32,000 nucleotides of DNA from Cupriavidus necator (GTDB taxonomy: Bacteria > Pseudomonadota > Gammaproteobacteria > Burkholderiales > Burkholderiaceae), in assembly GCF_016127575.1 (NCBI RefSeq), contig NZ_CP066019.1, positions 1,980,001-2,012,000 of the forward strand, given 5' to 3'. Under the pieces are notes generated by a model. That model searched no databases. It was not told the DNA's origin and saw only the letters and a program-made list of their open reading frames with translations. This document shows, one piece after another, positions 15,661 through 32,000 of this stretch. Both the position numbers and the translations under genes were made by a program. Numbering within the stretch: the first letter of the stretch is position 1; every line of letters begins with the position of its first letter.

Positions 15661-15671
15661 GAACCTTATCC

Positions 15672-16586: not shown

Positions 16587-16599
16587 GGCGCCGACGATC

Positions 16600-17757: not shown

Positions 17758-17794
17758 GCCATGAAAACAATGACAAGGACGAGCAGGAGGTTGT

Positions 17795-18619
17795 GTGGAT
17801 TCAGGTAATGAAGGCAACGGGCTGCGCACAAGGCGCGAGCGTTCGTCCCTGTTCGTCGGTTCGGTGGAAAAGGCCTTCCAGGTGCTGGAAGCCTTCCACG
17901 GCCCGGACCGCCGCCTGATGTCGATGGCGGAAATCGCCCGGGCGGCCGATCTCGACCGCAGCGCCACCCAGCGGCTGGTGCACACACTGGAACAGCTGGG
18001 CTACATCCGGCGCCTGCCCGATTCGGCGATGTATGGGCTTGCGCCGAAGGCACTGGGCCTGTCGTACAACTACCTGCGCTCCAACGACCTGGTCGAGCGC
18101 GCATCGCCCTACCTGCTCGATATCAGCCGCACGCTGGGAGAAACCGCCAACCTGCAGGAACTCGACGGGCACGAAATCGTGTTCCTGGCCCGCTTCCCCG
18201 GGCAGCACCTGATCAACGTCGATTTCGGGGTCGGGTACCGGCTCCCGGCCGTGTACACCGCGTCCGGGATTGCGATCCTGTCGAAGCTGCCCGAAGCGCA
18301 GCGCCTGGAGGTGGTGCGGGCGACCGCACTGAACCCCATCACGCCGTTCACTGAAACCGACCCCGACAAGCTGATGACGGCGATCCGCGAGGCCGGTGAA
18401 CGCGGCTATGCCGTGGCCATGAACCAGACCGTGGTCGGCGACATCTCCGTCGCAGCCGCAATCACCGACCACCGCGGGCTGCCGGTCGGGGCCATCAATA
18501 TCTCAGTCCCGTCCACGCGCTGGACGCTGGAAACCGCCCAGGCCAAGCTGGCCCCGCATGTGCAAGTGGCGGCCATGTCGATCTCGCAGGCAAAGCGGAT
18601 GAGTTTCCAGACGGCATGA
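17795..18619 (+). CDS. IclR-family transcriptional regulator
   Basis: GTG 17795 sits just after AGGAGG (17785-17790). wHTH 'VEKAFQVLEAFHGPDRRLMSMAEIARAADLDRSATQRLVHTLEQLGYI' plus an effector domain. Confidence 0.85.
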   Translation: MDSGNEGNGLRTRRERSSLFVGSVEKAFQVLEAFHGPDRRLMSMAEIARAADLDRSATQRLVHTLEQLGYIRRLPDSAMYGLAPKALGLSYNYLRSNDLVERASPYLLDISRTLGETANLQELDGHEIVFLARFPGQHLINVDFGVGYRLPAVYTASGIAILSKLPEAQRLEVVRATALNPITPFTETDPDKLMTAIREAGERGYAVAMNQTVVGDISVAAAITDHRGLPVGAINISVPSTRWTLETAQAKLAPHVQVAAMSISQAKRMSFQTA

Positions 18620-18650
18620 GCGATGCCGGAAACGCCGCCGGCTTCGCTCA
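18617..18650. terminator. Hairpin spanning both convergent stop codons (candidate bidirectional terminator or attenuating structure)
   Basis: TGAGCGA-t-GCCGG-aaacgccg-CCGGC-t-TCGCTCA: 7 + 5 bp with one T/T mismatch. It includes the IclR TGA (18617-18619) and the SDR stop (TCA on the plus strand, 18648-18650). No U-tracts. Confidence 0.3.
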
Positions 18651-19400
18651 GATGGCCCGGCCTCCGTCAACGGGCATGTCGATGCCGGTAAGGAAGCGGG
18701 CACCCGGGCTTGCCAGGAAGACCGCGGCATTGGCCACGTCGGCCGGCTCGCACATTCGCCCCAGCGGTATGGTGGCAACAAAGCGGGCGCGGTTCTCGGC
18801 GGTGTCGGCAACCCCCATGAAGTCCTGCAGCAGCCCGGTCGCCGCCATCACGGGCGAGATCAGGTTGACCCGGATCCCGTGCGCGGCCAGTTCAACAGCC
18901 ATCGATTTCGACATCACGCTCACCGCGCCCTTCGAGCTGTTGTACCAGGTCAGCCCCGGGCGCGGCCGGTGGCTGCCGACCGAGCCGATATTGAGGATCA
19001 CGCCTTTGCCGCGCTGCTTCATCAGCGGCACGACCGCGCGTGCCATGTGGTAGATCGACTTGACGTTGACGGCGAAGACGCGGTCGAAGACCGCTTCGTC
19101 GACTTCCAGCATCGACTGATTCCGATGCGTGGTGCCGGCATTGTTGACGACCACGTCCGGCTCGCCGAAATGGTCGCAGCAGTGCTGCACCGCGGCGTTG
19201 ATCTGCGCCGGGCTGGTGACGTCGCACGGAGCCGCACTGGCATTCGGCCCCAACTCGTCCGCCAGTCTCTGCACGGCATCGCGATCGATATCGGCCAGCA
19301 CGACCTTCGCTCCCGCCTGGATAAAGGCCCGCGCAATCGCGGCGCCAAAGCCACTGCCTGCGCCCGTGACAATGGCAACCTGGTCTGATAGCTCCGACAT
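18648..19400 (-). CDS. Short-chain dehydrogenase/reductase (classical SDR)
   Basis: 250 aa. TGAGSGFG (TGxxxGxG), NNAG and YNSSK (YxxxK). SD GGGAGA upstream. The gene is 9 nt after the ALDH stop. Confidence 0.9.
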   Translation of the reverse strand: MSELSDQVAIVTGAGSGFGAAIARAFIQAGAKVVLADIDRDAVQRLADELGPNASAAPCDVTSPAQINAAVQHCCDHFGEPDVVVNNAGTTHRNQSMLEVDEAVFDRVFAVNVKSIYHMARAVVPLMKQRGKGVILNIGSVGSHRPRPGLTWYNSSKGAVSVMSKSMAVELAAHGIRVNLISPVMAATGLLQDFMGVADTAENRARFVATIPLGRMCEPADVANAAVFLASPGARFLTGIDMPVDGGRAI

Positions 19401-19409
19401 GTCGTCTCC

Positions 19410-20843
19410 CTATTGGTAGTGCTGCACGATGGTCTTGGTGGTGCTCATCTCTTCCAGCGCGAGGAAGCCCTTTTCCCGGCCGTACCCGCTCTTCTTGACG
19501 CCGCCGAAGGGCAGTTCGACCCCACCGCCGGCACCGTAGCAATTGATAAAGACCTGCCCGCTCTGCAGCCGCTGGCTGACCCGCATCTGCCGGCTGCCGT
19601 TCTCGGTCCACACGCCGGCGACCAGGCCGTAGTCGGTGGCATTGGCCAGCCGGATGGCATCCTCTTCGTCCGTGAACGGCATCACCGACAGCACTGGCCC
19701 GAATACCTCGATATTCGCCAGCGCGTGGTCGCGCGGCACCGGACCGAACAGGACCGGCCTGACGAAGTACCCACCCCGGGGCAAATCCGCCGCAAACCCG
19801 CCTTCGGCGATAACCGGCACGCCGCTGTCCCGCGCGGCCTCCACCAGCCCCATCACACGCCGGTACTGCCGCTCGCTGACGATCGGCCCGCAATCCAGAT
19901 CGGCGGCCGGCACGCCCGCCTGCAGGGCACGGAAGGCCTGCGCCACCATGCCGACGAAGCGATCGTAGATGCCTTGCTGCACCAGCAGCCGGCTGCCCGC
20001 CGAGCAGGTCTGCCCGGCGTTCTGGACAATGGCCTTGACCACGGCCGGCACCGCCTTGTCCAGGTCCGCGTCGTCGAAGACGATCTGCGGCGACTTGCCG
20101 CCCAGCTCAAGCACGCAGGGGACGTGGTTGGCCGCGGTTGCCTGCTGCACCAGGGCGCCGGCCTCGGGCGAGCCGGTAAAGGTGGCGAAATGGATGCCGG
20201 GGTTCGATGTCAGCGCGGCGCCTGCCTCCGCGCCATACCCGGTCACCAGGTTGAGGGCTCCGGGCGGCAGCCCGGCTTCCATGGCAAGCTCGGCAATCCG
20301 GATCACGCTCAGGCACGCATCCTCCGATGGCTTCAGCACCGCCGCATTGCCCATCGCCAGTGCCGGCGCCAGCGTGCGCCCCATCATCTGCGCCGGGTAG
20401 TTCCAGGGAATGATGTGGGCGGTCACGCCATGCGGGACGCGCACCACGCTCACGTTGTATCCGTCCAGGTACGGAATCGTCTGACCGTGGACCTTGTCGG
20501 CGGCGCCACCGTAGAACTCGAAGTACCTGGCCACCGCCCTGGCATCGGCGCGCGCGGCCGAGATCGGCTTGCCGGTGTCCTGCGCCTCGATTGCCGCCAG
20601 CTCTTCCGCGTGATCGAGAATGCCTTGTCCCAGCCGCTGCAGGATGCGCCCGCGTTCGGTCGCGGTCTTGCTGCCCCACTCGCCCTGCAAGGCATCCTGC
20701 GCCGCGCTCACCGCCTGCTGCACATCCGCGGCGCGGCCGCGGCTGATCTTCGCAAACGCCATGCCGTCACTGGGATCGATCACGTCGATGGTCTCGCCAT
20801 CGATGGCGCCGAGCCATTTCCCTCCGATGAGTAACGTCTTCAC
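19410..20843 (-). CDS. NAD(P)-dependent aldehyde dehydrogenase
   Basis: 477 aa with a GTG start at 20843 and SD GGAG 7 nt upstream. ELGGKSP (catalytic Glu region) and GQTCSAGSR (catalytic Cys region). Confidence 0.95.
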   Translation of the reverse strand: MKTLLIGGKWLGAIDGETIDVIDPSDGMAFAKISRGRAADVQQAVSAAQDALQGEWGSKTATERGRILQRLGQGILDHAEELAAIEAQDTGKPISAARADARAVARYFEFYGGAADKVHGQTIPYLDGYNVSVVRVPHGVTAHIIPWNYPAQMMGRTLAPALAMGNAAVLKPSEDACLSVIRIAELAMEAGLPPGALNLVTGYGAEAGAALTSNPGIHFATFTGSPEAGALVQQATAANHVPCVLELGGKSPQIVFDDADLDKAVPAVVKAIVQNAGQTCSAGSRLLVQQGIYDRFVGMVAQAFRALQAGVPAADLDCGPIVSERQYRRVMGLVEAARDSGVPVIAEGGFAADLPRGGYFVRPVLFGPVPRDHALANIEVFGPVLSVMPFTDEEDAIRLANATDYGLVAGVWTENGSRQMRVSQRLQSGQVFINCYGAGGGVELPFGGVKKSGYGREKGFLALEEMSTTKTIVQHYQ

Positions 20844-20950
20844 CCGCCGCTCCTGAACAGCACATCTATCGTCACCGCGGCCACTCCCGGCCTGTGCGCC
20901 TCGCGCAGGCCAGCGGTACCGCCTCAGCCCATGGAAATCGGTCTGCTCCC

Positions 20951-22051
20951 CTACTGGCTCCGCGCAAGCGAGCCCGGCGACTCCGACTCCTTCATGAACT
21001 CCGCGTCGTTGTAGTGATAGAGATCGTCCAGGTAGGGCACGAAGAAGTCATAGAACGAGCGCGAGTCATACCTGATCTCGTCCCCGGGCCTGACGCATTC
21101 CGGAATCGGCCCGACATTGGCGTCATCGTCCGGGTAGAAGAAGAAGGTCAGCGCATAGCGCTTCATCGGCGGATTGACCACGCGGTGCGGCGTGGCGATG
21201 AAGCGGTCGTTGGACAGGCGGTTCAGGATCTGGCCGGTGTTGACGATCAGCGCGTCCTTGACGTAGCTGACACTCAGCCACTCGCGCGACGGGGTCATGA
21301 CCTGCAGGCCGGGCACCGGGGTCATCGGCAGCAAGGTCAGGAAGCTGCCGTCGGAATGCGGCGCCAGCGCGTACTGGCCCTCGTCGAGGTGTTCCTCAGG
21401 ATGGTAGTAGGCGCAGCGCTGGTAGTATTCCGGCGCCTTGAACATGCTGTCGAAATAGTCCGCGCGCAGCTCCAGCGCCCTGGCGTAGATGGGCAGGAAC
21501 TTCAGCGCCAGGCGCTCCATCGACAACTGGTAGTCGTACAGCGTCTGGCGGAACTCCGGCAGGCTCTCCGGCCACTGGTTCAGGCCACGATGACGCACAT
21601 TGGCCCGCACCTTGGGGTCGTCCTCGGTGCGGTTGCGCATGAAAAGCCAGGCCGAATTGGTATCCTTCTTGGTGTTCTCCGCAATCTTGGTCCGGATCGC
21701 CTCGGACTTCAGGATGGATGCCTTCGGCGGCAGGTAGCCCTGGTGGTGATAGCCGACCCGGTGCCTGAGCTTCTCTTCCATCGGGATCTCGAAGAGCTTG
21801 GCGGTCTGGCGGAACGACTCGTCGATCAGGGCGTGCGGGATGCCGTGATTGATCACCGAGAAGAACCCCAGCTCCTCCTGGATCAGCTTGACGTCGGCGG
21901 CCAGTTGCTCAAGCGCGCCGGGCACGCCAGCCAGGTAGGGGCCCAGGTCGAGAATGGGCAGGTCGGTCCCGCGCGCTATGGCTGCGCGCACCTGCTCTGA
22001 GGGAGCGGCCTGCAACGGCTGGGCCGCAGCCCGGGATGGCATTGCTGTCAT
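20951..22051 (-). CDS. 2-oxoglutarate/Fe(II)-dependent oxygenase (isopenicillin-N-synthase-like family)
   Basis: 366 aa. N-terminal DIOX_N-like 'LPILDLGP...GFFSVINHGIP'. Facial triad H-x-D (APHSDGSFLTLL) and distal His (ATPHRV), followed by KRYALTFF. SD TAGGAGA upstream. Confidence 0.85.
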   Translation of the reverse strand: MTAMPSRAAAQPLQAAPSEQVRAAIARGTDLPILDLGPYLAGVPGALEQLAADVKLIQEELGFFSVINHGIPHALIDESFRQTAKLFEIPMEEKLRHRVGYHHQGYLPPKASILKSEAIRTKIAENTKKDTNSAWLFMRNRTEDDPKVRANVRHRGLNQWPESLPEFRQTLYDYQLSMERLALKFLPIYARALELRADYFDSMFKAPEYYQRCAYYHPEEHLDEGQYALAPHSDGSFLTLLPMTPVPGLQVMTPSREWLSVSYVKDALIVNTGQILNRLSNDRFIATPHRVVNPPMKRYALTFFFYPDDDANVGPIPECVRPGDEIRYDSRSFYDFFVPYLDDLYHYNDAEFMKESESPGSLARSQ

Positions 22052-22147
22052 GATCGGTGTCTCCTATGGTTTGACTGATACGGGGAACGTGCTGCCTTGC
22101 CCGCCGATACGGTGGATCGGCTTGATCAAACTTCCACTGCACACATC

Positions 22148-23392
22148 TCACTTCCAGAACGCGCATCGGGATTCCGCCCTGGAAGCAAAGGCCTGCTCCC
22201 CGGGAATCCGCTGCACCTCCTTGTAGTAGTCCCACGGCTGGCGTGATTCAGCCGGGCTCTTCACTTCCATCAGGCGCAGATCGTGCACCATGCGTCCGTC
22301 TCCGCGGATATAGCCGTTCTGGGCGTACATATCGTTGATGCGGGTGGCCTTCATGCCGGCGATCACCTTCGCGGCGGCGTCCGTGCCGGCAGCCTTCACC
22401 GCGCGCAGATAGTGCTGTGTCGCCGAGTAGCTGGCCGCCTGCATGCTGGTGGGCTTCTTCTTCATCTTGTCCTGGAACCGCCCTGCCCACTTCCTTGAGT
22501 CATCGCTCTGGTCCCAGTACCAGGCTTCGGTCAGGGTGATGCCCTGGGTCAGTCCCAGGCCGAGGGCGTGCACATCCGTGATGAACAGCATCAGCCCCGC
22601 GATCTTCATCGACCTGGAGATGCCGAATTCGTTGGCCGCCTTGATCGCATTGATGGTGTCGCCGCCGCCGTTGGCCAGCCCCAGGACCTGGGCCCGCGAT
22701 GCCTTGGCCTGCAGCAGGAAGGAGGAAAAATCGGAGGCGGACAAAGGATGCCGGACGCTGCCCAGGACCTTGCCGCCGCCGGCGGTGACCACCGCCGCGG
22801 TCTCCTTCTCCAGCGAGGCGCCAAAGGCATAGTCCACCGTCAGGAAGTACCACGACCGTCCGCCCTGCCTGGTCATGGCGGCACCGGTGCCCCTGGCCAG
22901 GGCCACGGTGTCATAGAGATAGTGGATGGTATAGGGCGAGCACTCCTCATTGGTCAGCTGCGCCGCCACGCCGCCGGTCACCATGACCGGGCGCTGCTTT
23001 TCCGCTGCGACCTTGGCCACCGCCAGGCTGGTGCCGGAACTGGGCCCGCTGATGATCATGTCCACCCCTTGCCGGTCGAACCACTCGCGGGCCTGCGTGG
23101 CCGCGGTATCGGGCTTGCCGGCATGGTTGGCGTGGACCAGCTCGATGCGCTTGCCGTTGATCTCGCCGCCGGCATCCGCAATCGCCATCCGCACTGCCTC
23201 GACCAGGCCGTTGCCGCCCATGTCAGAGTAAAGCCCTGACATGTCCGCCAGCACGCCGATCTTCACCGACTCGTCGCTGAACTGGGCCGCAGCCGGTCCG
23301 GCCAGGGCCAGGCCGGCCATGCCCAGCAACGCAGCCGGCCACCTGATCCGCCTTGCCCGGCCTTCAGGCACTCGTTTTCTATTTATCCGCAT
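22148..23392 (-). CDS. ABC-type periplasmic binding protein, Leu/Ile/Val (LivJ)-type PBP1 family; orphan (no adjacent permease or ATPase)
   Basis: ATG 23392 with strong SD GGAGGGGAG. Signal 'WPAALLGMAGLALAGPAAAQ', then 'VKIGVLADMSGLYSDMGGNG', typical of this family. Confidence 0.9.
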   Translation of the reverse strand: MRINRKRVPEGRARRIRWPAALLGMAGLALAGPAAAQFSDESVKIGVLADMSGLYSDMGGNGLVEAVRMAIADAGGEINGKRIELVHANHAGKPDTAATQAREWFDRQGVDMIISGPSSGTSLAVAKVAAEKQRPVMVTGGVAAQLTNEECSPYTIHYLYDTVALARGTGAAMTRQGGRSWYFLTVDYAFGASLEKETAAVVTAGGGKVLGSVRHPLSASDFSSFLLQAKASRAQVLGLANGGGDTINAIKAANEFGISRSMKIAGLMLFITDVHALGLGLTQGITLTEAWYWDQSDDSRKWAGRFQDKMKKKPTSMQAASYSATQHYLRAVKAAGTDAAAKVIAGMKATRINDMYAQNGYIRGDGRMVHDLRLMEVKSPAESRQPWDYYKEVQRIPGEQAFASRAESRCAFWK

Positions 23393-23426: not shown

Positions 23427-23762
23427 TCACGCCCGCATCCCGCCTGGTGGCGCTGCCTCTGCCCCGGCCGGGCTGGCCAATGCGGACAGGTGCGCTTTCC
23501 TGAGCCTGCGCAACTGCCCCGGATTTGCCCGCACGCTTTCCACCGTTTCGAAATAGCGCCACAGTTCCCCGTCTATGTCGGCACGCAGCCTGATCGCGTC
23601 CAGCAGGCGGATTACCGCCAGCCGCTCGTGCCGCATCCTGACGCTGTGCCGCAGCAGCGCCAGCGCGGCCGCCCGCACATCTGGCACCTGGTGCGCCGGG
23701 GTTTCGGCGCGGCCGGCGGTGCGGATGGTTTTCTTGAGTGCCTTGATTCTTTCGCGCGACAT
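23427..23762 (-). CDS. Hypothetical Arg-rich, predicted helical protein (111 aa)
   Basis: ATG 23762, 37 nt after the meaB stop (MSRERIKALKKTIRTAGRAE...). The frame mostly uses G/C-ending codons. No recognisable motif. The ORF-track N-terminal extension to 23876 overlaps meaB. Confidence 0.45.
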   Translation of the reverse strand: MSRERIKALKKTIRTAGRAETPAHQVPDVRAAALALLRHSVRMRHERLAVIRLLDAIRLRADIDGELWRYFETVESVRANPGQLRRLRKAHLSALASPAGAEAAPPGGMRA

Positions 23763-23799: not shown

Positions 23800-24702
23800 C
23801 TACGCGCCAATGGCTTTGCCCAGCTGGGTCCAGGCCTGGGACAGCTGCTGCCGCAGTGGCAGGGCCAGGAATTCATCGTCCTGATTGGCGACCACCTCGG
23901 CGACCTGGACCTCGAGCAGGCGCTTCAGCCGGTAGCGGGCCCGCTGCCTGCGCAAGGCCGCCTGCCGCCCGGCGGCAGCCAGCCACGCCTGGTGCCGGTC
24001 GATGGCATCGGACAGAGCACTGACCGAGGCGGGACGCGATGCCGCGGTCAGCAGCACCGGCGGAACCCACGCGCCCTGCGCATGCCGCGTGATGGCGCCG
24101 ATGCGCCGGATATCCGTGGCCATGCGCTGGGCGCCCGGCAGGTCTGCCTTGTTGACGACGAAGATATCGGCCATTTCCATGATTCCCGCCTTCATCGCCT
24201 GCACCATGTCCCCACTGTCCGGCAACAACAGCAGCACCAGCGTATCGACCTGCGCGCGCGCCGCGTATTCCGTCTGGCCGACACCGACCGTTTCCAGCAG
24301 CACCTCGGCAAAGCCGAAGTCATCCATCGCATCCAGCATCTCCGGGAGGTTGTCAGCCAGGCCATCCGAGGTGCCGCGCGAGCCCAGCGAGCGGATGTAG
24401 AGTTCCGGGCTGGTGCCAAGCTCATCCATGCGGATCCGGTCCCCGAGGATGGCGCCGCCGCTCCTGGGACTGCTGGGATCCACCGCGAGCACGCCGAGGC
24501 GCCCCTTAGACGCGCGCGCCATGGCGAGGTGGCCCAACAGGGTGCTCTTGCCCGCGCCGGGCGCACCGGTCATGCCGATGCGCCTGGCCGGATGCAGCGG
24601 GGTATCCCGCTGCGCTCGCTGCACCAGCTCCGCGGGCGTGGCGTTGGCGATGCGGGTCAGCGTCCGGCCCAGCGCGCCCCGGTCGAGCGAGGACGGGTTC
24701 AT
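23800..24702 (-). CDS. meaB: MeaB/ArgK-type G-protein chaperone of B12-dependent mutases
   Basis: 300 aa. P-loop GMTGAPGAGKST, ETVGVGQ (switch region) and NKAD (VVNKADL). The start overlaps the CoA-transferase stop (ATGA, 24699-24702). Confidence 0.9.
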   Translation of the reverse strand: MNPSSLDRGALGRTLTRIANATPAELVQRAQRDTPLHPARRIGMTGAPGAGKSTLLGHLAMARASKGRLGVLAVDPSSPRSGGAILGDRIRMDELGTSPELYIRSLGSRGTSDGLADNLPEMLDAMDDFGFAEVLLETVGVGQTEYAARAQVDTLVLLLLPDSGDMVQAMKAGIMEMADIFVVNKADLPGAQRMATDIRRIGAITRHAQGAWVPPVLLTAASRPASVSALSDAIDRHQAWLAAAGRQAALRRQRARYRLKRLLEVQVAEVVANQDDEFLALPLRQQLSQAWTQLGKAIGA

Positions 24703-25826
24703 GGCGCCACCTTGCCCAGGACTTCATCGCGATGCTCGTCAAGCAACGGCGGCAGGCCATAGCTCGGCTCGTAATCCGAGAAGCGGATCGGGCTTGCCAC
24801 CGCGCGCAGCGGCAACTCGCCCTGCCCCAGCGCCACGATCAGCGAGCGCGCAGCGGTGATGTCGCTGCCCAACGCCTCATTCAATGTGCCCACCTCCGAC
24901 ACCACCACGCCCTGTGGCCCCAGGCGCCGCACCCATTGCGCCGCCGGGGCGGAGCGCAGCACCTCGGCAATCTCGGGTATCACCTCGGCACGGTGCGCGC
25001 GGCGGCCCGCCATGGTGGCAAAGCGCGGATCCGTGGTCCACGCCGGCCGGTCCACCTCCTCGCAGAAGGTCTTCCAGAAGCGGTCATGGGTGATGAAAAG
25101 CGTCAGCCAGCCCTTGGCGGTCGGGAAGATCTGTGCGGGCACCAGGTAGGGATGCGACGAGTCGGCCAGCCGCTCGATGGTCTCCCCCGCGTTCAGGGCG
25201 GCCCCGGCAAGGTAGTTGAGCTGTGACAGCATCACGTCGTACATGGCCACGTCCACCTGCCCACCCCGCCCCTGCACGATCTTCGCAAGCAAGCCCACTG
25301 CGGCAACCAGGCCAGCCGAGTTGTCCACCGCCGAGTAGCCGGCCTTGGTGGGCGGTGCCGCCGGATCTCCCGTCAAGGCCATGACCCCGGTCATGGCCTG
25401 GATCACATAGTCGTATGCCGGGCTGTCCGAATAGGGGCCGTCAAGGCCGTAGCCGGTGACGGCCACGCAGACCAGCTGCTCATTCCACTGGCGCAGCACC
25501 TCGTAGGTGAGCCCGAGCTTGCGCACCGCCGCCGGACGCAGGTTGGTCACCAGCGCATGGGATTGCCGCAACAGCCGCCCGAGTGCCAGCGTCCCTGCCT
25601 CGCTGGCGAGGTCGAGCACCACGCTTTTCTTGTTGCGGTTCAGGCTGGCAAAGTAGGCATTGTGCGGGCCGATGAAATGGGGGCTGATGGTGCGGCCGAT
25701 ATCACCTTCCGGGGTCTCGATCTTGATCACCTCGGCGCCCAGGTCGGTCATCATCAGCCCGCAGTAGGGCCCGGCAAGCATGTGGCCGACTTCGATGATG
25801 CGGATGCCGGCAAGGGGCGCGCTCAC
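24699..25826 (-). CDS. Family III CoA-transferase (CaiB/BaiF/Frc-like)
   Basis: 375 aa with a GTG start at 25826 overlapping the upstream stop (GTGA). N-terminus 'PLAGIRIIEVGHMLAGPYCGLMMTDLGAEVIKIE' is typical of family III. Confidence 0.9.
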   Translation of the reverse strand: MSAPLAGIRIIEVGHMLAGPYCGLMMTDLGAEVIKIETPEGDIGRTISPHFIGPHNAYFASLNRNKKSVVLDLASEAGTLALGRLLRQSHALVTNLRPAAVRKLGLTYEVLRQWNEQLVCVAVTGYGLDGPYSDSPAYDYVIQAMTGVMALTGDPAAPPTKAGYSAVDNSAGLVAAVGLLAKIVQGRGGQVDVAMYDVMLSQLNYLAGAALNAGETIERLADSSHPYLVPAQIFPTAKGWLTLFITHDRFWKTFCEEVDRPAWTTDPRFATMAGRRAHRAEVIPEIAEVLRSAPAAQWVRRLGPQGVVVSEVGTLNEALGSDITAARSLIVALGQGELPLRAVASPIRFSDYEPSYGLPPLLDEHRDEVLGKVAP

Positions 25827-26239
25827 GCCAGGCTCCTGCCCAGATTGCTGACCACCGTCTCCAGCGGCATGTCGGCGGTAAACACAGCGGTGACCCCCAG
25901 CGTCCGCAGGAAGGGCTGGTCCTCGGCGGGAATGGTGCCGCCGACAAAGACCTTGATGTCATGCGCATTGAGTTCGCGCAGCTGGGCGATGACCTCCCCC
26001 ACCAGCTCCTTGTGGCTGCCAGACAGGATGCTCAGGCCGACTGCGTCAACGCCCTCGTCGACAGCGACCTGCGCGATCTGCAATGGGCTGCGGCGCAGGC
26101 CGGTGTAGATGACTTCGGCACCGGCATTGCGCAACGTCAGCGCGATGATCTTCGCGCCGATATCGTGGCCGTCCAGGCCGGGCTTGCCAATCAGTATCCG
26201 CTTGCCGGACAACGCGCCGGCGGCTTGCAAGGTGTTCAT
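25823..26239 (-). CDS. B12-binding small subunit of a split acyl-CoA mutase
   Basis: ATG 26239 gives 138 aa. Cobalamin-binding DxHxxG motif (GLDGHDIGAK) and 'GLSILSGSH'. ATGA overlap with the large-subunit stop (26236-26239). Confidence 0.9.
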   Translation of the reverse strand: MNTLQAAGALSGKRILIGKPGLDGHDIGAKIIALTLRNAGAEVIYTGLRRSPLQIAQVAVDEGVDAVGLSILSGSHKELVGEVIAQLRELNAHDIKVFVGGTIPAEDQPFLRTLGVTAVFTADMPLETVVSNLGRSLA

Positions 26240-27861
26240 AGGTTCACCGGCTCCTTGAATTCGCCCCATTGCTGCTTCAGGCAAGCCACCATCTCTCCGA
26301 CCGTGGCATAGGCATGGCAGCAATCCACCAGATAGGGCATGACGTTCTCGCTGTCCCTGGCGGCCGCGGCCGTCAGCCGGGCCAGCGATGCGTCCACGGC
26401 TGACTGCTGGCGCGTATCCAGCACGCGCTGGAACTTCTCCAGGGCCCGCTGCGCGACGGTCGGATCCAGCGTGAACACCTCGCCGACCCGGATCTCCTCC
26501 CCCTCCTTCCTGAAGTGGTTCTGGCCGACGATGACGGTCTGGCCGGAATCGGTGTCCAGCTTGCGCTGCAGGCCCCGCTCGGCCAGCCGCATCTGGATCC
26601 AGCCATCCTCGATGGCAGGGATCACGCCGCCGTACGCCTCGATCTCGTCCATCACGTGGACGATCTGCGCCTCCATCCGGTCGGTGTGCTGCTCCAGGAA
26701 GTAGCTGCCGCCCAGCGGATCGACGGTCCGGCCGATGCCGCTTTCATAGGCGATGATCTGCTGCGTGCGCACGGCCAGCTCGGCGGAGAACTCGGTCGGG
26801 ATCTGGAAGGCCTCGTCGAAGGCACAGGTGAAGATCGACTGGGCCCCGCCCAGCACCGCGGCCATGGTCTCCACCGCCACCCGCACCACGTTGTTGTAAG
26901 GCTGGGGCGCCACCAGCGACGATCCCCCGCAGACGACCCCGAAGCGGAAATGCTGGGCCTTCGCATCCCTGGCGCCATAGCGCTCCTTCATCAGGCGCGC
27001 CCAGAGCCGGCGGCCCGCCCGGAACTTGGCGATCTCGTCGAAGAAGTCCATGTGCACGTAGAAGAAGAAGGACAGGCGCTTGGCAAACTTCTCCACGTCG
27101 CCGCCCCGGGCACGCAGCTCGTCCACATAGGCCAGTCCGTTGGCCAGGGTGTACGCCATTTCCTCGGCCGCGGTGGCCCCCGCGTCGCGCACATGGGCGC
27201 CGGCGATGCTGATGGGGTTGAAGCGTGGCGAGACCTCGTTCGAATAGAGGATCGAATCGGCGATCAGCCGCATCGACGGCCGCACCGGGAAGATCCAGGT
27301 GCCGCGCGCGACGTACTCCTTCAGGATGTCGTTCTGGATCGTGCCGGTCAGCTTGCTGCGCGGCACGTTCTGCTTGTCTGCGACGGCCAGGTACATGGCA
27401 TAGACGATCGCGGCCGTACCGTTGATGGTGAACGAGGTCGAGATCCTTGACAGGTCCAGGCCGTCGAACAGGATCTCGGCCTCGCTCAGGTTCGACAGCG
27501 ACACGCCGACCTTGCCGATTTCCGGCCGGGCCATCGGGTGGGTCGGATCGAAGCCGCATTGGGTCGGCAGGTCCAGCGCCACTGAAAGGCCGGTCTGGCC
27601 CTGCGCCAGCAGGAACTTGTAGCGCTCGTTGGACTCCTCCGCGGTGCCGAATCCCGAGTACTGGCGGATGGTCCACAGCCGGCCCTGGTAGCCATCGGGA
27701 AAGATGCCGCGCGTGAACGGGTAGCTGCCGGGGTCCCCGATCTTGTCCGGATGGACCGCCGCCGCATCCACGCTCGCCGGAACCTCGATGCCGCTCTGGC
27801 TGACCGGCCGCAAGGCCGGCTCGGCGCCCGCATCCGTCATGGACAGCTCAGCGTTGCTCAT
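26236..27861 (-). CDS. Adenosylcobalamin-dependent acyl-CoA mutase, large (substrate-binding) subunit; methylmalonyl-CoA-mutase family, divergent
   Basis: ATG 27861 (SD GGAGG upstream; ATGA overlap with the crotonase stop) gives 541 aa. Family motifs YPFTRG, WTIRQYSGFGT, GLSVALDLPT, GTIQNDILKEY, PYNNVVR. Confidence 0.92.
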   Translation of the reverse strand: MSNAELSMTDAGAEPALRPVSQSGIEVPASVDAAAVHPDKIGDPGSYPFTRGIFPDGYQGRLWTIRQYSGFGTAEESNERYKFLLAQGQTGLSVALDLPTQCGFDPTHPMARPEIGKVGVSLSNLSEAEILFDGLDLSRISTSFTINGTAAIVYAMYLAVADKQNVPRSKLTGTIQNDILKEYVARGTWIFPVRPSMRLIADSILYSNEVSPRFNPISIAGAHVRDAGATAAEEMAYTLANGLAYVDELRARGGDVEKFAKRLSFFFYVHMDFFDEIAKFRAGRRLWARLMKERYGARDAKAQHFRFGVVCGGSSLVAPQPYNNVVRVAVETMAAVLGGAQSIFTCAFDEAFQIPTEFSAELAVRTQQIIAYESGIGRTVDPLGGSYFLEQHTDRMEAQIVHVMDEIEAYGGVIPAIEDGWIQMRLAERGLQRKLDTDSGQTVIVGQNHFRKEGEEIRVGEVFTLDPTVAQRALEKFQRVLDTRQQSAVDASLARLTAAAARDSENVMPYLVDCCHAYATVGEMVACLKQQWGEFKEPVNL

Positions 27862-28637
27862 TGGGCCCTCCTGGAGAGGATGCCCTCGGCAGCGTTCCAA
27901 TGGTCCGCATGGAGCCAGGTATGCAACAGTTGCTGCTGCTCGATGGTGCGGGCAGCGTCATGCGACTCGCCGCGCCGGCTGGCCGCGGTCTGCGCCTTGA
28001 TGCCGCGCAGCACCTGCGGGGCGCAGCCCAGCAGCGGTTGCAGGAAGGCGTGGATGTCCTTGCCGGCGGGTCCGTCCGTGACCACCGCATCGGCCAAGCC
28101 CCACTGCAGCGCCTGCTGCGCATCGACAAGCTCGCAACGGCTCATCATGCGCATGGCCCGCGCCGCGCCGACGATCCGGCACAGGTCGGGGCCGCCGCCC
28201 CAGGCCGAGGTGATGGCCAGCCGCGCCTGGATAAAGCCGATGCGCGCGCTCGCCGACTGCAGCCGCATGTCGCAGGCCAATGCCAGCTCGGCGCCGCCGC
28301 CGATGGCATCGCCGTTCAGGTAGGCCAGCACCGGCAGCGGGCAGTCGCGCACCGCATCCAGGGCACCGCGCGCCTGCTCGCTCATGGCCAGCGTAGCCTC
28401 CCGGTCGCGCACGCCGGACAGCTCGACCAGATCGCCGCCTGCCGCAAAGAAGCGCTGGCCGGCGCCGGTCAGCACGATGCAGCGCACCCCGGGCTGCGCC
28501 GCCGCGGCGCTCACCACCTGCGCCAATCCCGCCAGCACGTGGCGGGCCAGCGCATTGTGTTTCTGCGCCCGGTCGATCGTGATCCATAGCGCGCCGCCGG
28601 CGCGCTCCTCCACGGTGATGTCCTTAGCTGCGTACAC
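27858..28637 (-). CDS. Crotonase-superfamily (enoyl-CoA hydratase/isomerase/decarboxylase-fold) protein
   Basis: 259 aa with a GTG start at 28637 and SD GGGAGG 9 nt upstream. Oxyanion-hole segments 'FFAAGGDL' and 'NGDAIGGGAELALACD'. Confidence 0.9.
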   Translation of the reverse strand: MYAAKDITVEERAGGALWITIDRAQKHNALARHVLAGLAQVVSAAAAQPGVRCIVLTGAGQRFFAAGGDLVELSGVRDREATLAMSEQARGALDAVRDCPLPVLAYLNGDAIGGGAELALACDMRLQSASARIGFIQARLAITSAWGGGPDLCRIVGAARAMRMMSRCELVDAQQALQWGLADAVVTDGPAGKDIHAFLQPLLGCAPQVLRGIKAQTAASRRGESHDAARTIEQQQLLHTWLHADHWNAAEGILSRRAQ

Positions 28638-28815
28638 GCTGTTCTGCCTCCCGACTGGTTTGAATGGATGCTAGGCGGGGGTTTATTCCGGCACAAGAAC
28701 GCTAGTTCCGTATCTCGAACAAATGAGTACAATGCAGCGGAATACGGCCACGCCGCCGGCGTTTGTTCAGCCGGCCGAATTTCTTCCAGCCAGGTGCAAG
28801 CGAAAGGAGGGGACT

Positions 28816-29574
28816 ATGTCCGGCGTCACGGTGACCGCCATCGAGCGGGTGATCGATATCCTTGAAGCCTTCCAGGCAAACCAGCGGCCGCTGTCGCTGA
28901 CGGAGCTGGCGGAGGCGATAGACATTCCCAAGAGCACCTGCCACGCCATCGTCTCGACCCTGATGGCACGCGGCTACCTCTATTCCCTCACCCGTCCGCG
29001 CGCGCTCTATCCCACCCGGCGCATCTATGACGTGGCGCGCGACATCACCGAGAAAGACCCGTTCGTGGAACGCGCCACGCCGGTGCTGGAGCGGCTGCGC
29101 GACGCCACGCGGGAAACCGTGATCCTTGGCAAGCGGCAGGGTGAATCCGTGATCTACCTGCAGGTCATCGAAGGCGTGCACGCGATCCGCTACACGGCCA
29201 AGCCGGGGGAGTTCAAGCCGCTGCACTCGAGCTCCATCGGCAAGGCCATCCTGGGCGGCCTGAAGGAGCAGGAGCTGCGCGGCTGGCTGGCCGGCCGGGA
29301 ACTGCCCGCCATCACCATGGCCACCAAGACCGACCCAGAGGCCCTCGTGCGCGACATCCAGGAAAGCCGGCGCGCCGGCTACTTCGTCACGCGCGGCGAG
29401 AACGTCAGCGACGTCTGGGCCGTCGCGACCTTCCTCACGTTGAACAATGAGACCCTGGCCATTGCCGTGGCAGGGCCGAAGAACCGGATGGAGACGTGCA
29501 TCCCTGAGTGCGCGAAAGTGCTGGTGGCCACCTGCAGCTTCCTGTCGCGGCAGGTGGCAGGCAACCACGCGTGA
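28816..29574 (+). CDS. IclR-family transcriptional regulator (divergent from the mutase operon)
   Basis: ATG 28816 preceded by AAGGAGGGG. wHTH 'IERVIDILEAFQANQRPLSLTELAEAIDIPKSTCHAIVSTLMARGYL' plus an effector domain. Confidence 0.88.
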   Translation: MSGVTVTAIERVIDILEAFQANQRPLSLTELAEAIDIPKSTCHAIVSTLMARGYLYSLTRPRALYPTRRIYDVARDITEKDPFVERATPVLERLRDATRETVILGKRQGESVIYLQVIEGVHAIRYTAKPGEFKPLHSSSIGKAILGGLKEQELRGWLAGRELPAITMATKTDPEALVRDIQESRRAGYFVTRGENVSDVWAVATFLTLNNETLAIAVAGPKNRMETCIPECAKVLVATCSFLSRQVAGNHA

Positions 29575-29587
29575 TGGCGCAGTGACG

Positions 29588-30205
29588 ATGAGCCGGCTCC
29601 GCTACGCCTCGCTCGATGCCCTGCTGACCGAAGTGCGGGCTTGCCGCGCCTGTGCGCCACACCTGCCGCTGGGCCCGCGCCCGATCGTGCGCGTCGGGGC
29701 CGACGCGCGCATCCTGATCGTCGGCCAGGCGCCGGGGATACGCGTGCATGAAACCGGCATTCCCTGGAACGATGCGAGCGGCGACCGCCTGCGGCAGTGG
29801 CTCGGGGTCGATGCCGCCACCTTCCTCGACGAATCGCAGTTCGCGATCATCCCGATGGGGTTCTGCTATCCCGGACGCGGCAAGAGCGGCGACAACCCGC
29901 CGCGCCGCGAGTGCGCGCCATTGTGGCTCGACCGGCTGCTGGCGCAACTGCCGTCGATCGAGCTGACCTTGCTGGTCGGCCAGTACGCGCAGCGCCATTT
30001 CCTCGGGGCGCGCCGCAAGCCGACGCTGACCGAGACCGTCAGGGCATGGAAGGACTACGCGCCCGGCTTCGTGCCGTTGCCGCATCCGTCACCGCGCAAC
30101 CAGCCGTGGTTCAAGCAGCATCCCTGGTTTGAGGACGAGGTGCTGCCGATGTTGCGTGAGCGGGTTGGCCGGCTGTTGCGGCACGGCCCTGCGCAATCAG
30201 GGTAG
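29588..30205 (+). CDS. Uracil-DNA glycosylase superfamily protein (Fe-S type, family uncertain)
   Basis: ATG 29588 gives 205 aa. CRAC near the N-terminus plus Cys93 and Cys109 (spacing like family 4/5 4Fe-4S UDGs). Motif 1 'IVGQAPG', motif 2 'HPSPRN'. Confidence 0.8.
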   Translation: MSRLRYASLDALLTEVRACRACAPHLPLGPRPIVRVGADARILIVGQAPGIRVHETGIPWNDASGDRLRQWLGVDAATFLDESQFAIIPMGFCYPGRGKSGDNPPRRECAPLWLDRLLAQLPSIELTLLVGQYAQRHFLGARRKPTLTETVRAWKDYAPGFVPLPHPSPRNQPWFKQHPWFEDEVLPMLRERVGRLLRHGPAQSG

Positions 30206-30248
30206 GCAGCAAGCGATACCCGCGCCACCGTCGCCTGGCCCGCTCACC

Positions 30249-31241
30249 TCATTCGCTGGCCGTAAAGCCCGAAGCCGCGACCACCGGTCCCCACTGCATG
30301 CGCTGCGCCTGGATGAGCTTGCGCAGGGCATCCCCCGGCTTGCCGTTCATCTCCATGCCCAGCGCCGACATCTTGTCGCGCACCACGGGATCCTTGACGG
30401 CGTCGAGCAGCGCTTTCTCGATCCTCGCCACCGTAGCCGGCGGCGTCCCCGCCGGCACAAAGGCCGAGTACCAGCCTGACGCCGTCTCGAAACCCGGCGC
30501 GCCCGCCTCCGCCAGCGTTGGCACATCAGGCAGCAGCGCCGACCGGCGGGTCCCGGTGACGCCGAGGAAACGGATCTTGCCCGCCCGGTACAGCTCCATC
30601 TGCCCCCCCACCGCATCGATACCCAGCGGCAGCGTGCCGCCGATCTCATCGGTCAGCATCATGACGGCGCCGCGATAGGCAGTGGGCAGCAACGGCACGC
30701 CAATCGACTTGCTGAGCGACAGCACCCCGAAATGAATGCTGCCGCCGAGCGTGACCAGCCCGACACCGCCCTTGTCCGGGTTGCGCTTCACCCATGCCAG
30801 GTATTCCGGCATGGTCCGATAGGGCTGGTTGACGCTGGCGGACGCCACCAGCGGCACGTCGGCCAGGTAGGCGACCGGAACCAGGTCCTTGTCGGGGTCA
30901 TAGGCCAGGCGCTTGTAGGTCAGCGGAAAGATGGTGAACGGCGGCGCGGGCGAGATCAGCACCGTCTTGCCGTCCGGCGGCGCGCGTTTGACGTTCTCCA
31001 GCGCCAGCCGCGCCGATGCGCCGGGGCGGTTCTCGACCAGGACAGGCGTATCGAGCGAAACACGCAGCTTTTCAGCAAGCGCGCGCGCGAAGATGTCCAG
31101 CGCGCCACCGGCCGCGAAGCCGACCACGATGCGCACGGGCGCGTCGCCGCTGGCGGGGGCAGCCATGGCAGGAACGGCACTGGCACCCAGGGCCAATGCC
31201 AGCGCGGCGGCCAGCCGTCGCAAGGGGTTCGGAAATAGCAT
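30249..31241 (-). CDS. Bug-family (TctC-like) substrate-binding protein
   Basis: 330 aa. Signal 'LAAALALALGASAVPAMA', 'PVRIVVGFAAGGALDIFARALA...VLVENRPGASA'. SD GGAG upstream. Confidence 0.9.
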   Translation of the reverse strand: MLFPNPLRRLAAALALALGASAVPAMAAPASGDAPVRIVVGFAAGGALDIFARALAEKLRVSLDTPVLVENRPGASARLALENVKRAPPDGKTVLISPAPPFTIFPLTYKRLAYDPDKDLVPVAYLADVPLVASASVNQPYRTMPEYLAWVKRNPDKGGVGLVTLGGSIHFGVLSLSKSIGVPLLPTAYRGAVMMLTDEIGGTLPLGIDAVGGQMELYRAGKIRFLGVTGTRRSALLPDVPTLAEAGAPGFETASGWYSAFVPAGTPPATVARIEKALLDAVKDPVVRDKMSALGMEMNGKPGDALRKLIQAQRMQWGPVVAASGFTASE

Positions 31242-31274
31242 ACGGATTACTCCGGTTGACGGCGGCGGATGCGC

Positions 31275-32000
31275 TCAGGCGGCCTCGAGCGCAGTGTGCA
31301 CTTCCAGCGGATAGATCGGGCGGCGCAGGTTGCGGAACGGGAACTGGCTGTAGTCAGAGCTGCAGACTCCGGGGCCGGCCACCAGCACGATCTCGCTGGC
31401 GATCGGCTCGAACCCTGCGCGGAAGTGCTGGCGCGACTTGATCAGGATGTACCTGCGGCGCGACAGGTCGATGCCCGCATGCGTGAACACGCCGGTATCG
31501 AACGGCTCCTGCGGCTTCTCGCAGATCACGACCAGCGTGCCGGCGACATCCAGCACCACGGTGCGGCCCAGGCTCAGCTTCATGCCTGTGAACATCGGGC
31601 CGGTGACCTGGTAGTTGCCGTCGGTAATGCACTGCACCCGGCCGCTCAGCCGCAGCGGACGGCCCTTCAGGTCCAGCGCGGGCATGTCGGTCTTGCCGCC
31701 CACATCCAGTGTGACGGACTGCCCGACGCCGGCGGCAATCAGTTCCGCCACCGCGCCCGGGTCCCAGAACGGCCCGGCGACCACGCCTTCGAGCCCCTGG
31801 CGCAGGACTTCGCCCAGCACCGTCATTTCATCCGTCGGCCCGCCAGCGCCGCAGTTATCGCCATGGTCGACCAGCACGACCGGGCCCTGCGTGAGCGTCT
31901 TGGCGCGCGCGATGGATTCCTCCATCGGCTCGATCGGAAAAACAAAATCAGCCCGGCGTTCCCACGCCATGCCGCAGAGCTCGTCGAGCAGGCGCCGCCC
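31275..32000 (-). CDS. MlrC-like (M81 peptidase family) protein, C-terminal part (5' end outside window)
   Basis: The frame stays open to the window edge (…GRRLLDELCG-MAWERR…). 'VLVDHGDNCGAGGPTDEMTVL' and the overall C-terminal region resemble the MlrC C-terminal domain as I recall it. The gene is 33 nt upstream of the Bug gene. Confidence 0.7.
   Translation of the reverse strand, partial: GRRLLDELCGMAWERRADFVFPIEPMEESIARAKTLTQGPVVLVDHGDNCGAGGPTDEMTVLGEVLRQGLEGVVAGPFWDPGAVAELIAAGVGQSVTLDVGGKTDMPALDLKGRPLRLSGRVQCITDGNYQVTGPMFTGMKLSLGRTVVLDVAGTLVVICEKPQEPFDTGVFTHAGIDLSRRRYILIKSRQHFRAGFEPIASEIVLVAGPGVCSSDYSQFPFRNLRRPIYPLEVHTALEAA

Follow-up and report, generated by a model that had tools for sequence, protein, structure and literature searches.

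A conserved operon of Cupriavidus necator around a predicted B12-dependent acyl-CoA mutase with an unusual substrate pocket

We have analysed a 32,000-nucleotide stretch of the Cupriavidus necator genome (hereafter the window; contig NZ_CP066019.1, positions 1,980,001 to 2,012,000), which corresponds to C. necator H16 chromosome 2, AM260480.1 at ~2.07-2.09 Mb, in reverse orientation. Positions 28637 to 23800 of its minus strand carry five open reading frames (ORFs) of 259, 541, 138, 375 and 300 aa, which encode a crotonase-fold protein, the large and the B12-binding subunit of an acyl-CoA mutase, a family III CoA-transferase and a chaperone of the MeaB type. This operon is genuine, strongly conserved and uncharacterised, and in alignments its mutase belongs to a clade that carries an invariant, previously undescribed pocket signature. 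In our judgement there is an even chance that the operon and its regulator form an IclR-controlled, mobile catabolic cassette, i.e., a CoA-recycling, B12-dependent route for an imported diacid of the substituted succinate or malonate type.

Organization, regulation and spread of the operon

The original prediction for this DNA described a crotonase, a large mutase subunit, a B12 subunit, a family III transferase and MeaB, encoded by five genes joined by four 4-nt overlaps, with the mutase split into 541 and 138 aa and a gene order unlike that of the Escherichia coli sbm operon. All four junctions read as described, the public AM260480.1 gene calls agree with the sizes, the split and the order, and the Pfam domains bear out the assignments, with which NCBIfam concurs at the family level. 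The features of the block and of its upstream region are the following.

27858..28637, minus strand: crotonase-fold protein, 259 aa, GTG start, atypical; ECH_1 (PF00378) 3e-41
26236..27861, minus strand: acyl-CoA mutase large (substrate-binding) subunit, 541 aa, distinct clade; PF01642 MM_CoA_mutase 3.6e-188
25823..26239, minus strand: B12-binding small subunit, 138 aa; PF02310 1.6e-21, TIGR00640
24699..25826, minus strand: family III (CaiB/Frc-type) CoA-transferase, 375 aa, GTG start; PF02515 CoA_transf_3 4e-105
23800..24702, minus strand: MeaB-type G-protein chaperone, 300 aa; PF03308 3.2e-71
28816..29574, plus strand: IclR-family regulator, divergent, 252 aa (public call; longest ORF from 28723); HTH_IclR + IclR_C
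28716..28769: candidate operator in the IclR/crotonase intergenic region, two inverted TTTGTTCR half-sites at 28716-28723 (minus) and 28762-28769 (plus)

Read from the sequence, the crotonase stop overlaps the large-subunit start in ATGA (27861-27858), the large-subunit stop overlaps the B12-subunit start in ATGA (26239-26236), the B12-subunit stop overlaps the GTG start of the transferase in GTGA (25826-25823), and the transferase stop overlaps the meaB start in ATGA (24702-24699). Shine-Dalgarno-like purine runs (AGGAGG, AAGGAG, GCAGGAG, AAGGTGG) lie 7-13 nt 5' of the downstream starts, within the preceding gene. The overlaps exceed what chance would give, because the other same-strand neighbour pairs of the locus never overlap (gaps of 9-107 nt in the public gene calls) and because the same overlaps recur in orthologous loci: from the crotonase end to the meaB end, they are kept in 48 of 74, 71 of 79, 62 of 75 and 58 of 73 loci. 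No terminator-like site was predicted inside the block, in promoter and terminator scans of the window that were at the level of shuffled sequence and thus uninformative. No Rfam family was found in the window, and therefore no cobalamin riboswitch.

A scan with one genome per species found large-subunit relatives encoded in 346 stretches; the analysis covered the best 80 loci, each with at least 70% identity. The gene-neighbourhood comparison that the original prediction had proposed was run on these loci: by tblastn with the window proteins, the order crotonase, large subunit, small subunit, transferase, MeaB is kept in ~75 of the 80, mostly in Burkholderiales. When all ORFs in 85 loci were clustered de novo, in a separate analysis, the picture was the same. 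Relatives of the large subunit with ~85-92% identity occur in Variovorax, Rhodoferax, Hydrogenophaga, Polaromonas, Acidovorax, Comamonas, Ramlibacter, Bordetella and Achromobacter. Because order and content are conserved across loci, the conclusion that the five genes are one functional unit is strongly supported by this comparison.

The unit takes in the divergent IclR regulator, a point absent from the original prediction. In 66 of the 85 loci an IclR gene adjoins the crotonase gene, mostly divergently. TTTGTTCR has two matches in the whole 32-kb window, where 0.42 would be expected by chance, and both lie in the IclR/crotonase intergenic region; the 8-mers TTGTTCGA / TGAACAAA recur in 25 of 50 orthologous IclR/crotonase intergenic regions. 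The inverted pair is thus a likely candidate for the IclR operator, as judged from its position and recurrence.

On the other side of the block, ORF clustering in the 85 loci places a TctC gene after meaB in 47 loci, a LivK-type gene in ~20 and a DctP gene in ~10. A TAXI-TRAP system follows the core in Sulfitobacter, and DctP and DctM follow meaB in Xanthobacter. These genes of the TctC, TRAP and ABC types point to an imported organic acid. They give no hint of a ligand in the case of TctC, since the TctC protein beside the core is about equally similar to every solved Bug/TctC protein.

Plasmid copies flanked by insertion sequences (IS) were found in Marinobacter, Sulfitobacter and Diaphorobacter. 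The Sulfitobacter and Paraburkholderia copies consist of IclR, the five genes and then a TAXI or DctPQM TRAP transporter; judged by gene content, the minimal system therefore comprises the five genes with a regulator and a carboxylate-type uptake system. The Marinobacter plasmid cassette has IS5, IS630 and IS21 on its flanks and, 3' of meaB, a gene for a PduO-type cob(I)yrinic acid a,c-diamide adenosyltransferase (locus L090, 16233-16802), and this combination is consistent with adenosylcobalamin (AdoCbl) dependence and with horizontal transfer. From its contexts, the operon appears to be horizontally mobile.

A groundwater gammaproteobacterial metagenome-assembled genome (MAG; locus L031, 5006-19864) encodes an 89% identical mutase with small subunit and MeaB, without crotonase, transferase or IclR. 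The neighbours there are a luciferase-like monooxygenase, two Baeyer-Villiger-type flavin monooxygenases, a KstD-like flavoprotein, an acyl-CoA dehydrogenase, a thiolase-like protein and NMO, a context that, by its gene families, looks like alicyclic or terpenoid degradation.

The mutase pocket and the partner enzymes

The large subunit gives full-length matches to its family (PF01642, 626.7 bits against a cut-off of 22.1; TIGR00641, 632.6 bits against 303.8) and stays below the cut-offs of two specific equivalogs, namely NF006944 for methylmalonyl-CoA mutase (MCM; 542.5 bits against 876) and NF045497 for IcmF (264.6 bits against 1500). Its best solved relative is the large subunit of 2-hydroxyisobutyryl-CoA mutase (HCM; 4r3u, 9.3e-149, 499 bits), with human MCM at 441 bits. 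Database names for the operon's proteins are automatic and mutually inconsistent, and include 'methylmalonyl-CoA mutase' and '3-hydroxybutyryl-CoA dehydratase'; the RefSeq name of the large subunit is now 'acyl-CoA mutase large subunit family protein'.

Residues were mapped to the numbering of P. shermanii MCM through alignments, and compared also with human and M. tuberculosis MCM and with 82 orthologues. In this mapping, the chain index plus one matches the literature numbering for Tyr89, Gln197, Arg207, Tyr243, His244, His328, Gln330, Asn366 and Glu370. The clamp for carboxylate and thioester is present: Tyr68, Gln176, Arg186 and His223 correspond to MCM Tyr89, Gln197, Arg207 and His244, and are invariant in the 82 orthologues. 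Around it the pocket is altered. Tyr243 of MCM is replaced by Ala222, His328-Ser-Gln330-Thr331 by Gly308-Val-Val-Cys311, Trp334 by Ser314, His364-Thr-Asn366 by Phe344-Thr-Cys346, Phe117 by Leu96, and His122-Arg123 by Gln101-Cys102. The replacements are invariant or nearly so in the orthologues, down to 70% identity, whereas eight of the replaced positions do not vary between human, M. tuberculosis and P. shermanii MCM nor, for the most part, in HCM.

These residues exclude three known identities for the enzyme. It is not an ordinary MCM, given the eight invariantly replaced positions and the NF006944 score. Nor is it an HCM, since Tyr68, Ala95 and Arg186 stand in place of the Ile, Asp and Gln of 4r3u (the alignments read RQIAGF in 4r3u and RQYSGF here, STDFD and SVALD, YMAQKEY and YVARGTW), or an isobutyryl-CoA mutase (ICM), in which Phe and Gln occupy the positions of Tyr68 and Arg186. 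The retained clamp of Tyr68, Arg186, Gln176 and His223 argues for a substrate with a free carboxylate. The dicarboxylate proposed in the original prediction gains support from this Tyr89/Arg207 clamp, from the diacid-using relatives of the transferase and from the carboxylate-type uptake genes beside meaB. The Tyr243Ala mutant of MCM described by Thomä et al. in 2000 reportedly opens a cavity beside the substrate, and the natural Ala222, together with several changes from polar to small or hydrophobic residues, suggests a bulkier acyl group. We therefore expect from the alignments that the acyl group probably exceeds succinyl and methylmalonyl in bulk or hydrophobicity, for instance as an alkyl-, gem-dialkyl-, hydroxyalkyl- or aryl-substituted group.

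A HMMER search of 1.84 billion cluster representatives was carried out and the best 150 matches were aligned. Among these 150, MCM-like proteins read Y..R.YH.HxQT.W.HTN, in canonical split and fused forms, ICM-like proteins F..Q, and HCM-like proteins I.D..Q. Many clades without a characterised member keep Tyr89 and Arg207 yet vary at 243, 328-334 and 364-366; because they vary among clades that keep the clamp, these positions behave as specificity determinants. Judged by their residues, carboxylate-type mutases thus look to cover a much wider range of specificities than the few that have been characterised. The signature described here occurs, among the same 150, only in the clade's own representatives and in one 56% identical actinobacterial clade. 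Against annotated plasmid mutases, identity is at least 71% within the clade and at most 48% elsewhere, except for a Streptomyces copy. This copy, an example of that actinobacterial clade on a plasmid of Streptomyces sp. N50 (locus L093, 9001-12935), is 56% identical and has the related signature Ser243, Gly328, Val330, Phe364, Ala366; it is followed by a small subunit, a luciferase-like monooxygenase and a family III CoA-transferase 54% identical to that of the window. The pairing of mutase and transferase therefore predates the proteobacterial clade.

The small subunit keeps the cobalamin motifs DGHDIG (DxHxxG), SILSGSH and VFVGG in 83 orthologues and scores 129 bits with TIGR00640 (cut-off 57.45). 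MeaB has a conserved P-loop (GAPGAGKST) and NKAD, and passes TIGR00750 narrowly (243.4 bits against 240.75). These two sets of motifs and the adenosyltransferase gene after Marinobacter meaB support a B12 dependence of the mutase, as predicted from its family. The transferase spans profile positions 1-365 of the 366 of PF02515 (352.4 bits) and keeps, in 76 orthologues, Asp139 of the motif PAYDY, which we take to be the catalytic Asp by analogy to a G(Y/H)D motif. It is below every NCBIfam equivalog cut-off (succinate-glutarate 234/750, YfdE oxalate 211/522, mesaconate 210/700, Frc 183/504, CaiB 102/413); the nearest families are those for succinate-glutarate, oxalate and mesaconate, and the nearest relatives in the Protein Data Bank (PDB) are Frc-like, YfdE and SUGCT. 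The original assignment to the CaiB/Frc family rather than the ScpC type is correct, as PF02515 is the protein's sole domain and the AcetylCoA_hydro and AcetylCoA_hyd_C domains of ScpC are absent.

The crotonase is atypical. Its oxyanion-hole motifs, FAAGGDL and GGG-E117, are invariant, and Glu117 is the counterpart of hydratase Glu144. Two-Glu enoyl-CoA hydratases (ECH) such as the rat enzyme have Glu144 and Glu164 in addition to the oxyanion hole; here, Gln137 takes the position of Glu164 in most orthologues, with His there in a few (FIQARLA, against LPEINLG in 5zai), and so an ordinary hydratase is unlikely. At the C-terminus, a conserved W241...H246-W247 takes the place of the usual D..EG..AF.EKR helix. 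The protein is 22-26% identical to E. coli ScpB, whose His66 and Tyr140 align with Gly68 and Ala144 both by BLASTP and by profile alignment, and the 60 best-matching PDB entries for the profile of the crotonase family do not include ScpB. Since these catalytic residues are absent, an ScpB orthologue is rejected.

A candidate pathway and its alternatives

The original prediction held that the operon recreates the scpA-argK-scpB-scpC logic of E. coli. What stands of this claim is the four-function parts list; what does not is the equivalence of the parts, since the mutase is not an MCM (542.5 against 876 bits), the crotonase is not ScpB-like and the transferase comes from a different superfamily. 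In sbm, as here, a mutase (PF01642 + PF02310), MeaB/ArgK (PF03308), a crotonase fold (PF00378) and a CoA-transferase share one operon, with CoA recycled around a rearrangement. The C. necator operon differs in its split mutase (541 + 138 aa), pocket signature and gene order, in its family III transferase (PF02515), where ScpC consists of AcetylCoA_hydro and AcetylCoA_hyd_C (PF02550/PF13336), in the attached IclR regulator and uptake system, and in a crotonase distant from ScpB. The sbm analogy thus holds for the parts list and the idea of CoA recycling only. The combination of mutase, chaperone, CoA-transferase and crotonase is of a known kind; what sets this operon apart is the previously undescribed mutase pocket signature and the atypical one-Glu crotonase.

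By published description, the pairing and a bulky substituent find their closest precedent, one that the original prediction missed, in IaaL with IaaGH of the indoleacetate (iaa) operon of Aromatoleum aromaticum, in which a family III transferase acts on a substituted succinate and a two-subunit B12 mutase interconverts (2-aminophenyl)succinyl-CoA and (2-aminobenzyl)malonyl-CoA, followed by a decarboxylating step (PMC8360864). The decarboxylating enzyme there is the acyl-CoA dehydrogenase IaaF and not a crotonase, and no acyl-CoA dehydrogenase was found among the domain-annotated genes of the C. necator operon; the ligase, molybdoenzyme and hydantoinase-like genes of the iaa operon are absent as well. 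By the summary in PMC8360864, anaerobic alkane degradation rearranges the carbon skeleton of (1-methylalkyl)succinyl-CoA by the same logic. ActD and MatBQ, of actinonin and matlystatin biosynthesis, are described as split hexylmalonyl-CoA mutases of the HCM subclass, with a long alkylmalonyl- or alkylsuccinyl-CoA as the proposed substrate (PMC5719088), which indicates that carboxylate-type split mutases with bulky substituents exist. These systems are biosynthetic, and have a crotonyl-CoA carboxylase/reductase and a VOC epimerase in place of a CoA-transferase and a crotonase.

For the last enzyme, crotonase-fold decarboxylation of alkylmalonyl-CoA has precedents in ScpB (by annotation), ECHDC1 (PMC8473548) and CarB/ThnE (PMC6542682). 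ScpB/YgfG and, by description, ECHDC1 and CarB share the fold and an oxyanion-hole chemistry able to decarboxylate an alpha-carboxy thioester, and these precedents make a decarboxylating role chemically reasonable; ScpB/YgfG differs in its His66 and Tyr140, which are missing here. That the C. necator crotonase decarboxylates an alpha-carboxy thioester can, as a step taken alone, be proposed tentatively, by analogy to these enzymes.

We propose the following pathway. A diacid would be taken up by a binding-protein-dependent system, of the ABC type in C. necator and of the TctC, TRAP or TAXI type elsewhere. The transferase, whose family is clear from its domain, would then load CoA onto one carboxyl of the presumed diacid, from succinyl-CoA or from the thioester of the pathway's own end product; with such a donor, CoA would be recycled without ATP. 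The heterodimeric AdoCbl mutase of 541 + 138 aa, kept loaded by MeaB, would move the thioester carbon and so interconvert a substituted succinyl-CoA and the matching substituted malonyl-CoA; its class is evident, and the particular substrate pair is our suggestion. Finally, and this is the weakest step, the crotonase would act on the alpha-carboxy thioester, most likely by decarboxylation to a monocarboxylic acyl-CoA, which would pull the unfavourable rearrangement from succinyl to malonyl. In C. necator and ~22 other species, a 2-oxoglutarate (2OG) oxygenase, a short-chain dehydrogenase/reductase (SDR) and an aldehyde dehydrogenase (ALDH) could serve as a feeder that makes the second carboxyl from a precursor's methyl or hydroxymethyl group.

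Several points weigh against this pathway. Every chemical step is drawn from family membership, and the roles given to the replaced mutase residues come from alignment and the MCM literature rather than from the protein's own structure. ScpB, the only bacterial methylmalonyl-CoA decarboxylase of this fold, has a catalytic His66 and Tyr140 that are missing from the crotonase, and ordinary short-chain hydratases and dehydratases are the crotonase's closest solved relatives. The oxygenase modules could act after the core or be unrelated neighbours. The TRAP binding protein beside the core in Paraburkholderia is nearest to 4mco/4mev, presumably a malonate complex; if so, a malonate-type substrate and the reverse direction would be favoured. 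Methylsuccinate is less likely as the substrate, because C. necator degrades it by a B12-independent route through its itaconate cluster (PMC12290011).

The alternative that survives best, which we nonetheless consider unlikely, is an isomerase cycle in the reverse direction. A substituted malonate would be imported and loaded with CoA, the crotonase would epimerise the thioester by one-base enolisation in its oxyanion hole, the mutase would form the substituted succinyl-CoA, and the transferase would hand the CoA back, so that the net conversion of a malonate-type into a succinate-type acid would neither release CO2 nor use ATP. This would make sense of a minimal unit of just transporter, transferase, mutase and crotonase, and the MCM equilibrium lies on the succinyl side; the oxygenase, SDR and ALDH could, for their part, oxidise an alpha-methyl branch to a malonate. 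We know of no crotonase-fold 2-alkylmalonyl-CoA epimerase, which counts against the cycle, and a prochiral malonate could be loaded as the correct epimer in the first place, so that a universally conserved, coupled epimerase would be unnecessary; the product, moreover, would still need a further pathway. Other mutase clusters have a dedicated epimerase, ActC/MatE (PMC5719088), and the present operon contains no VOC-type one; this, too, speaks for the cycle.

Less probable still is a route related to that of HCM, in which the CoA ester of a hydroxy-diacid of the citramalyl or dimethylmalyl type would be rearranged to a 3-hydroxyacyl-type product, and the crotonase would dehydrate or cleave it, possibly with the substrate's own carboxylate standing in for the missing Glu. 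HcmAB with MeaH (Aquincola; 4r3u) has the same split into large and small subunits and a MeaB-like chaperone. In favour of the route, the large subunit is overall nearer to 4r3u than to human MCM, the crotonase is nearest to 3-hydroxyacyl-CoA dehydratases, and 2OG oxygenases able to introduce a hydroxyl lie nearby (like isopenicillin-N-synthase in ~22 loci, of the TauD type in ~13). However, the Ile, Asp and Gln that distinguish 4r3u are Tyr68, Ala95 and Arg186 here, and HCM keeps Tyr243, HxQT and HTN, all of which are replaced. HCM clusters use a CoA ligase, not a transferase. In addition, Glu-to-Gln at the second position, as in rat ECH E164Q, normally abolishes hydratase activity.

A bolder version of the proposed pathway, and an improbable one, would have the mutase represent a new AdoCbl substrate class and the crotonase a new decarboxylase, which together would provide a widespread aerobic route for removing branched or quaternary carbons from dicarboxylic acids. 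One example would be the conversion of 2,2-dimethylsuccinyl-CoA through isopropylmalonyl-CoA to isovaleryl-CoA and CO2, and another that of a citramalyl-C1-CoA analogue to 3-hydroxybutyryl-CoA. If true, soil and freshwater Burkholderiales could by this route degrade gem-dimethyl diacids derived from terpenoids or pollutants, and the enlarged hydrophobic pocket (Tyr243Ala, His328Gly, Gln330Val, Asn366Cys) would be how the protein structure makes room for a migrating centre with two substituents. An ordinary MCM operon working like E. coli sbm, from succinate to propionate, or in propionate assimilation, would fit the shared parts list, some of the database names and the retained Tyr89, Arg207, His244 and Gln197, but is very improbable given the NF006944 score, the eight invariant replacements at MCM-constant positions (canonical MCM-like representatives keep Y..HxQT..HTN), the generic RefSeq name and a crotonase without the ScpB catalytic residues.

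Few enzymes rearrange carbon skeletons, and the B12-dependent acyl-CoA mutases are among them. To our knowledge, a handful of AdoCbl acyl-CoA mutase specificities are known, namely methylmalonyl, ethylmalonyl, isobutyryl, pivalyl and 2-hydroxyisobutyryl, with phenylsuccinyl and hexylmalonyl proposed. The clade described here is well delimited, under strong constraint with ~90% identity across genera, and directly testable in a biotechnology workhorse, C. necator H16. Once solved, its substrate would add a mutase specificity and probably also a new crotonase reaction, and would explain the use of branched diacids by common soil and freshwater Burkholderiales; metabolic engineers would gain a compact, ATP-free module for skeleton rearrangement, and positions 243, 328-334 and 364-366 are candidate specificity determinants for mining further activities. 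This interest is tempered by a logic that is familiar and by the many other mutase clades that await characterisation. Literature searches, including searches with the H16_B182x-184x locus tags, found no publication on this locus, and the papers on transposon sequencing with random barcodes (RB-TnSeq) of volatile fatty acid use in C. necator and of diacid use in beta-proteobacteria mention no mutase.

Accessory modules and neighbouring genes

The unit runs on past meaB into genes on which the original prediction did not remark, i.e., a small ORF, a binding protein and a trio of oxygenase, ALDH and SDR:

23427..23762, minus strand: small ORF, 111 aa, Arg-rich, 37 nt after meaB; homologues 39-51% identical, same place in 8 loci
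22148..23392, minus strand: LivK-type periplasmic binding protein (ABC uptake); Peripla_BP_6 9e-108, best PDB match 3i09 (1.6e-156, 65%-class)
20951..22051, minus strand: 2OG/Fe(II) oxygenase, isopenicillin-N-synthase-like; DIOX_N + 2OG-FeII_Oxy, with the core in ~22 loci
19410..20843, minus strand: ALDH; Aldedh 1.5e-156, with the core in ~22 loci
18648..19400, minus strand: SDR, last of the same-strand run; adh_short_C2 1.4e-65, with the core in ~25 loci

The 111-aa ORF has zero Pfam or NCBIfam matches. Its position is conserved and its Variovorax homologue shares a 4-nt overlap with meaB; judged from this arrangement, the ORF may be the sixth gene of the coupled series. The same-strand run from 18648 to 23392 (LivK-type protein, oxygenase, ALDH, SDR) has gaps of 9-107 nt and no regulator of its own.

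The oxygenase/ALDH/SDR module stands beside the core in ~22 species, sometimes in a changed orientation. In two marine alphaproteobacterial MAGs, the crotonase gene has a 51-55% identical oxygenase homologue directly upstream, and beside the Marinobacter plasmid cassette there is a 63% identical ALDH copy. Oxygenase, SDR and ALDH together make a classic conversion of methyl to carboxyl, as in TsaMBCD, and by this analogy the module may be a methyl-to-carboxyl feeder that makes the diacid from a methyl-branched acid. A different module is found in ~13 loci (e.g., locus L006, 14218-20079), with TctC, IclR, an FMN-dependent 2-hydroxyacid dehydrogenase, TctC, a TauD-family dioxygenase and an RraA-like aldolase/decarboxylase. 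Among the aligned loci, no mutase residue was found that separates those with the oxygenase/ALDH/SDR module from the others. The core thus probably handles one common intermediate, with the modules as alternative feeders or drains.

Two neighbouring regions lie outside the unit. On the plus strand, a separate operon at 12803-18619 converges on the end of the SDR gene and encodes an ABC ATPase and permease, a DHDPS-family aldolase, an FMN-dependent 2-hydroxyacid dehydrogenase and a PcaR-like IclR. At 29588-31970, right after the IclR gene, lies a gene for a family 4/5-type uracil-DNA glycosylase, followed by TctC (Bug) and an MlrC-like (DUF1485/MlrC_C) protein, neighbours that are typical of the 'Bug' islands of Burkholderiales.

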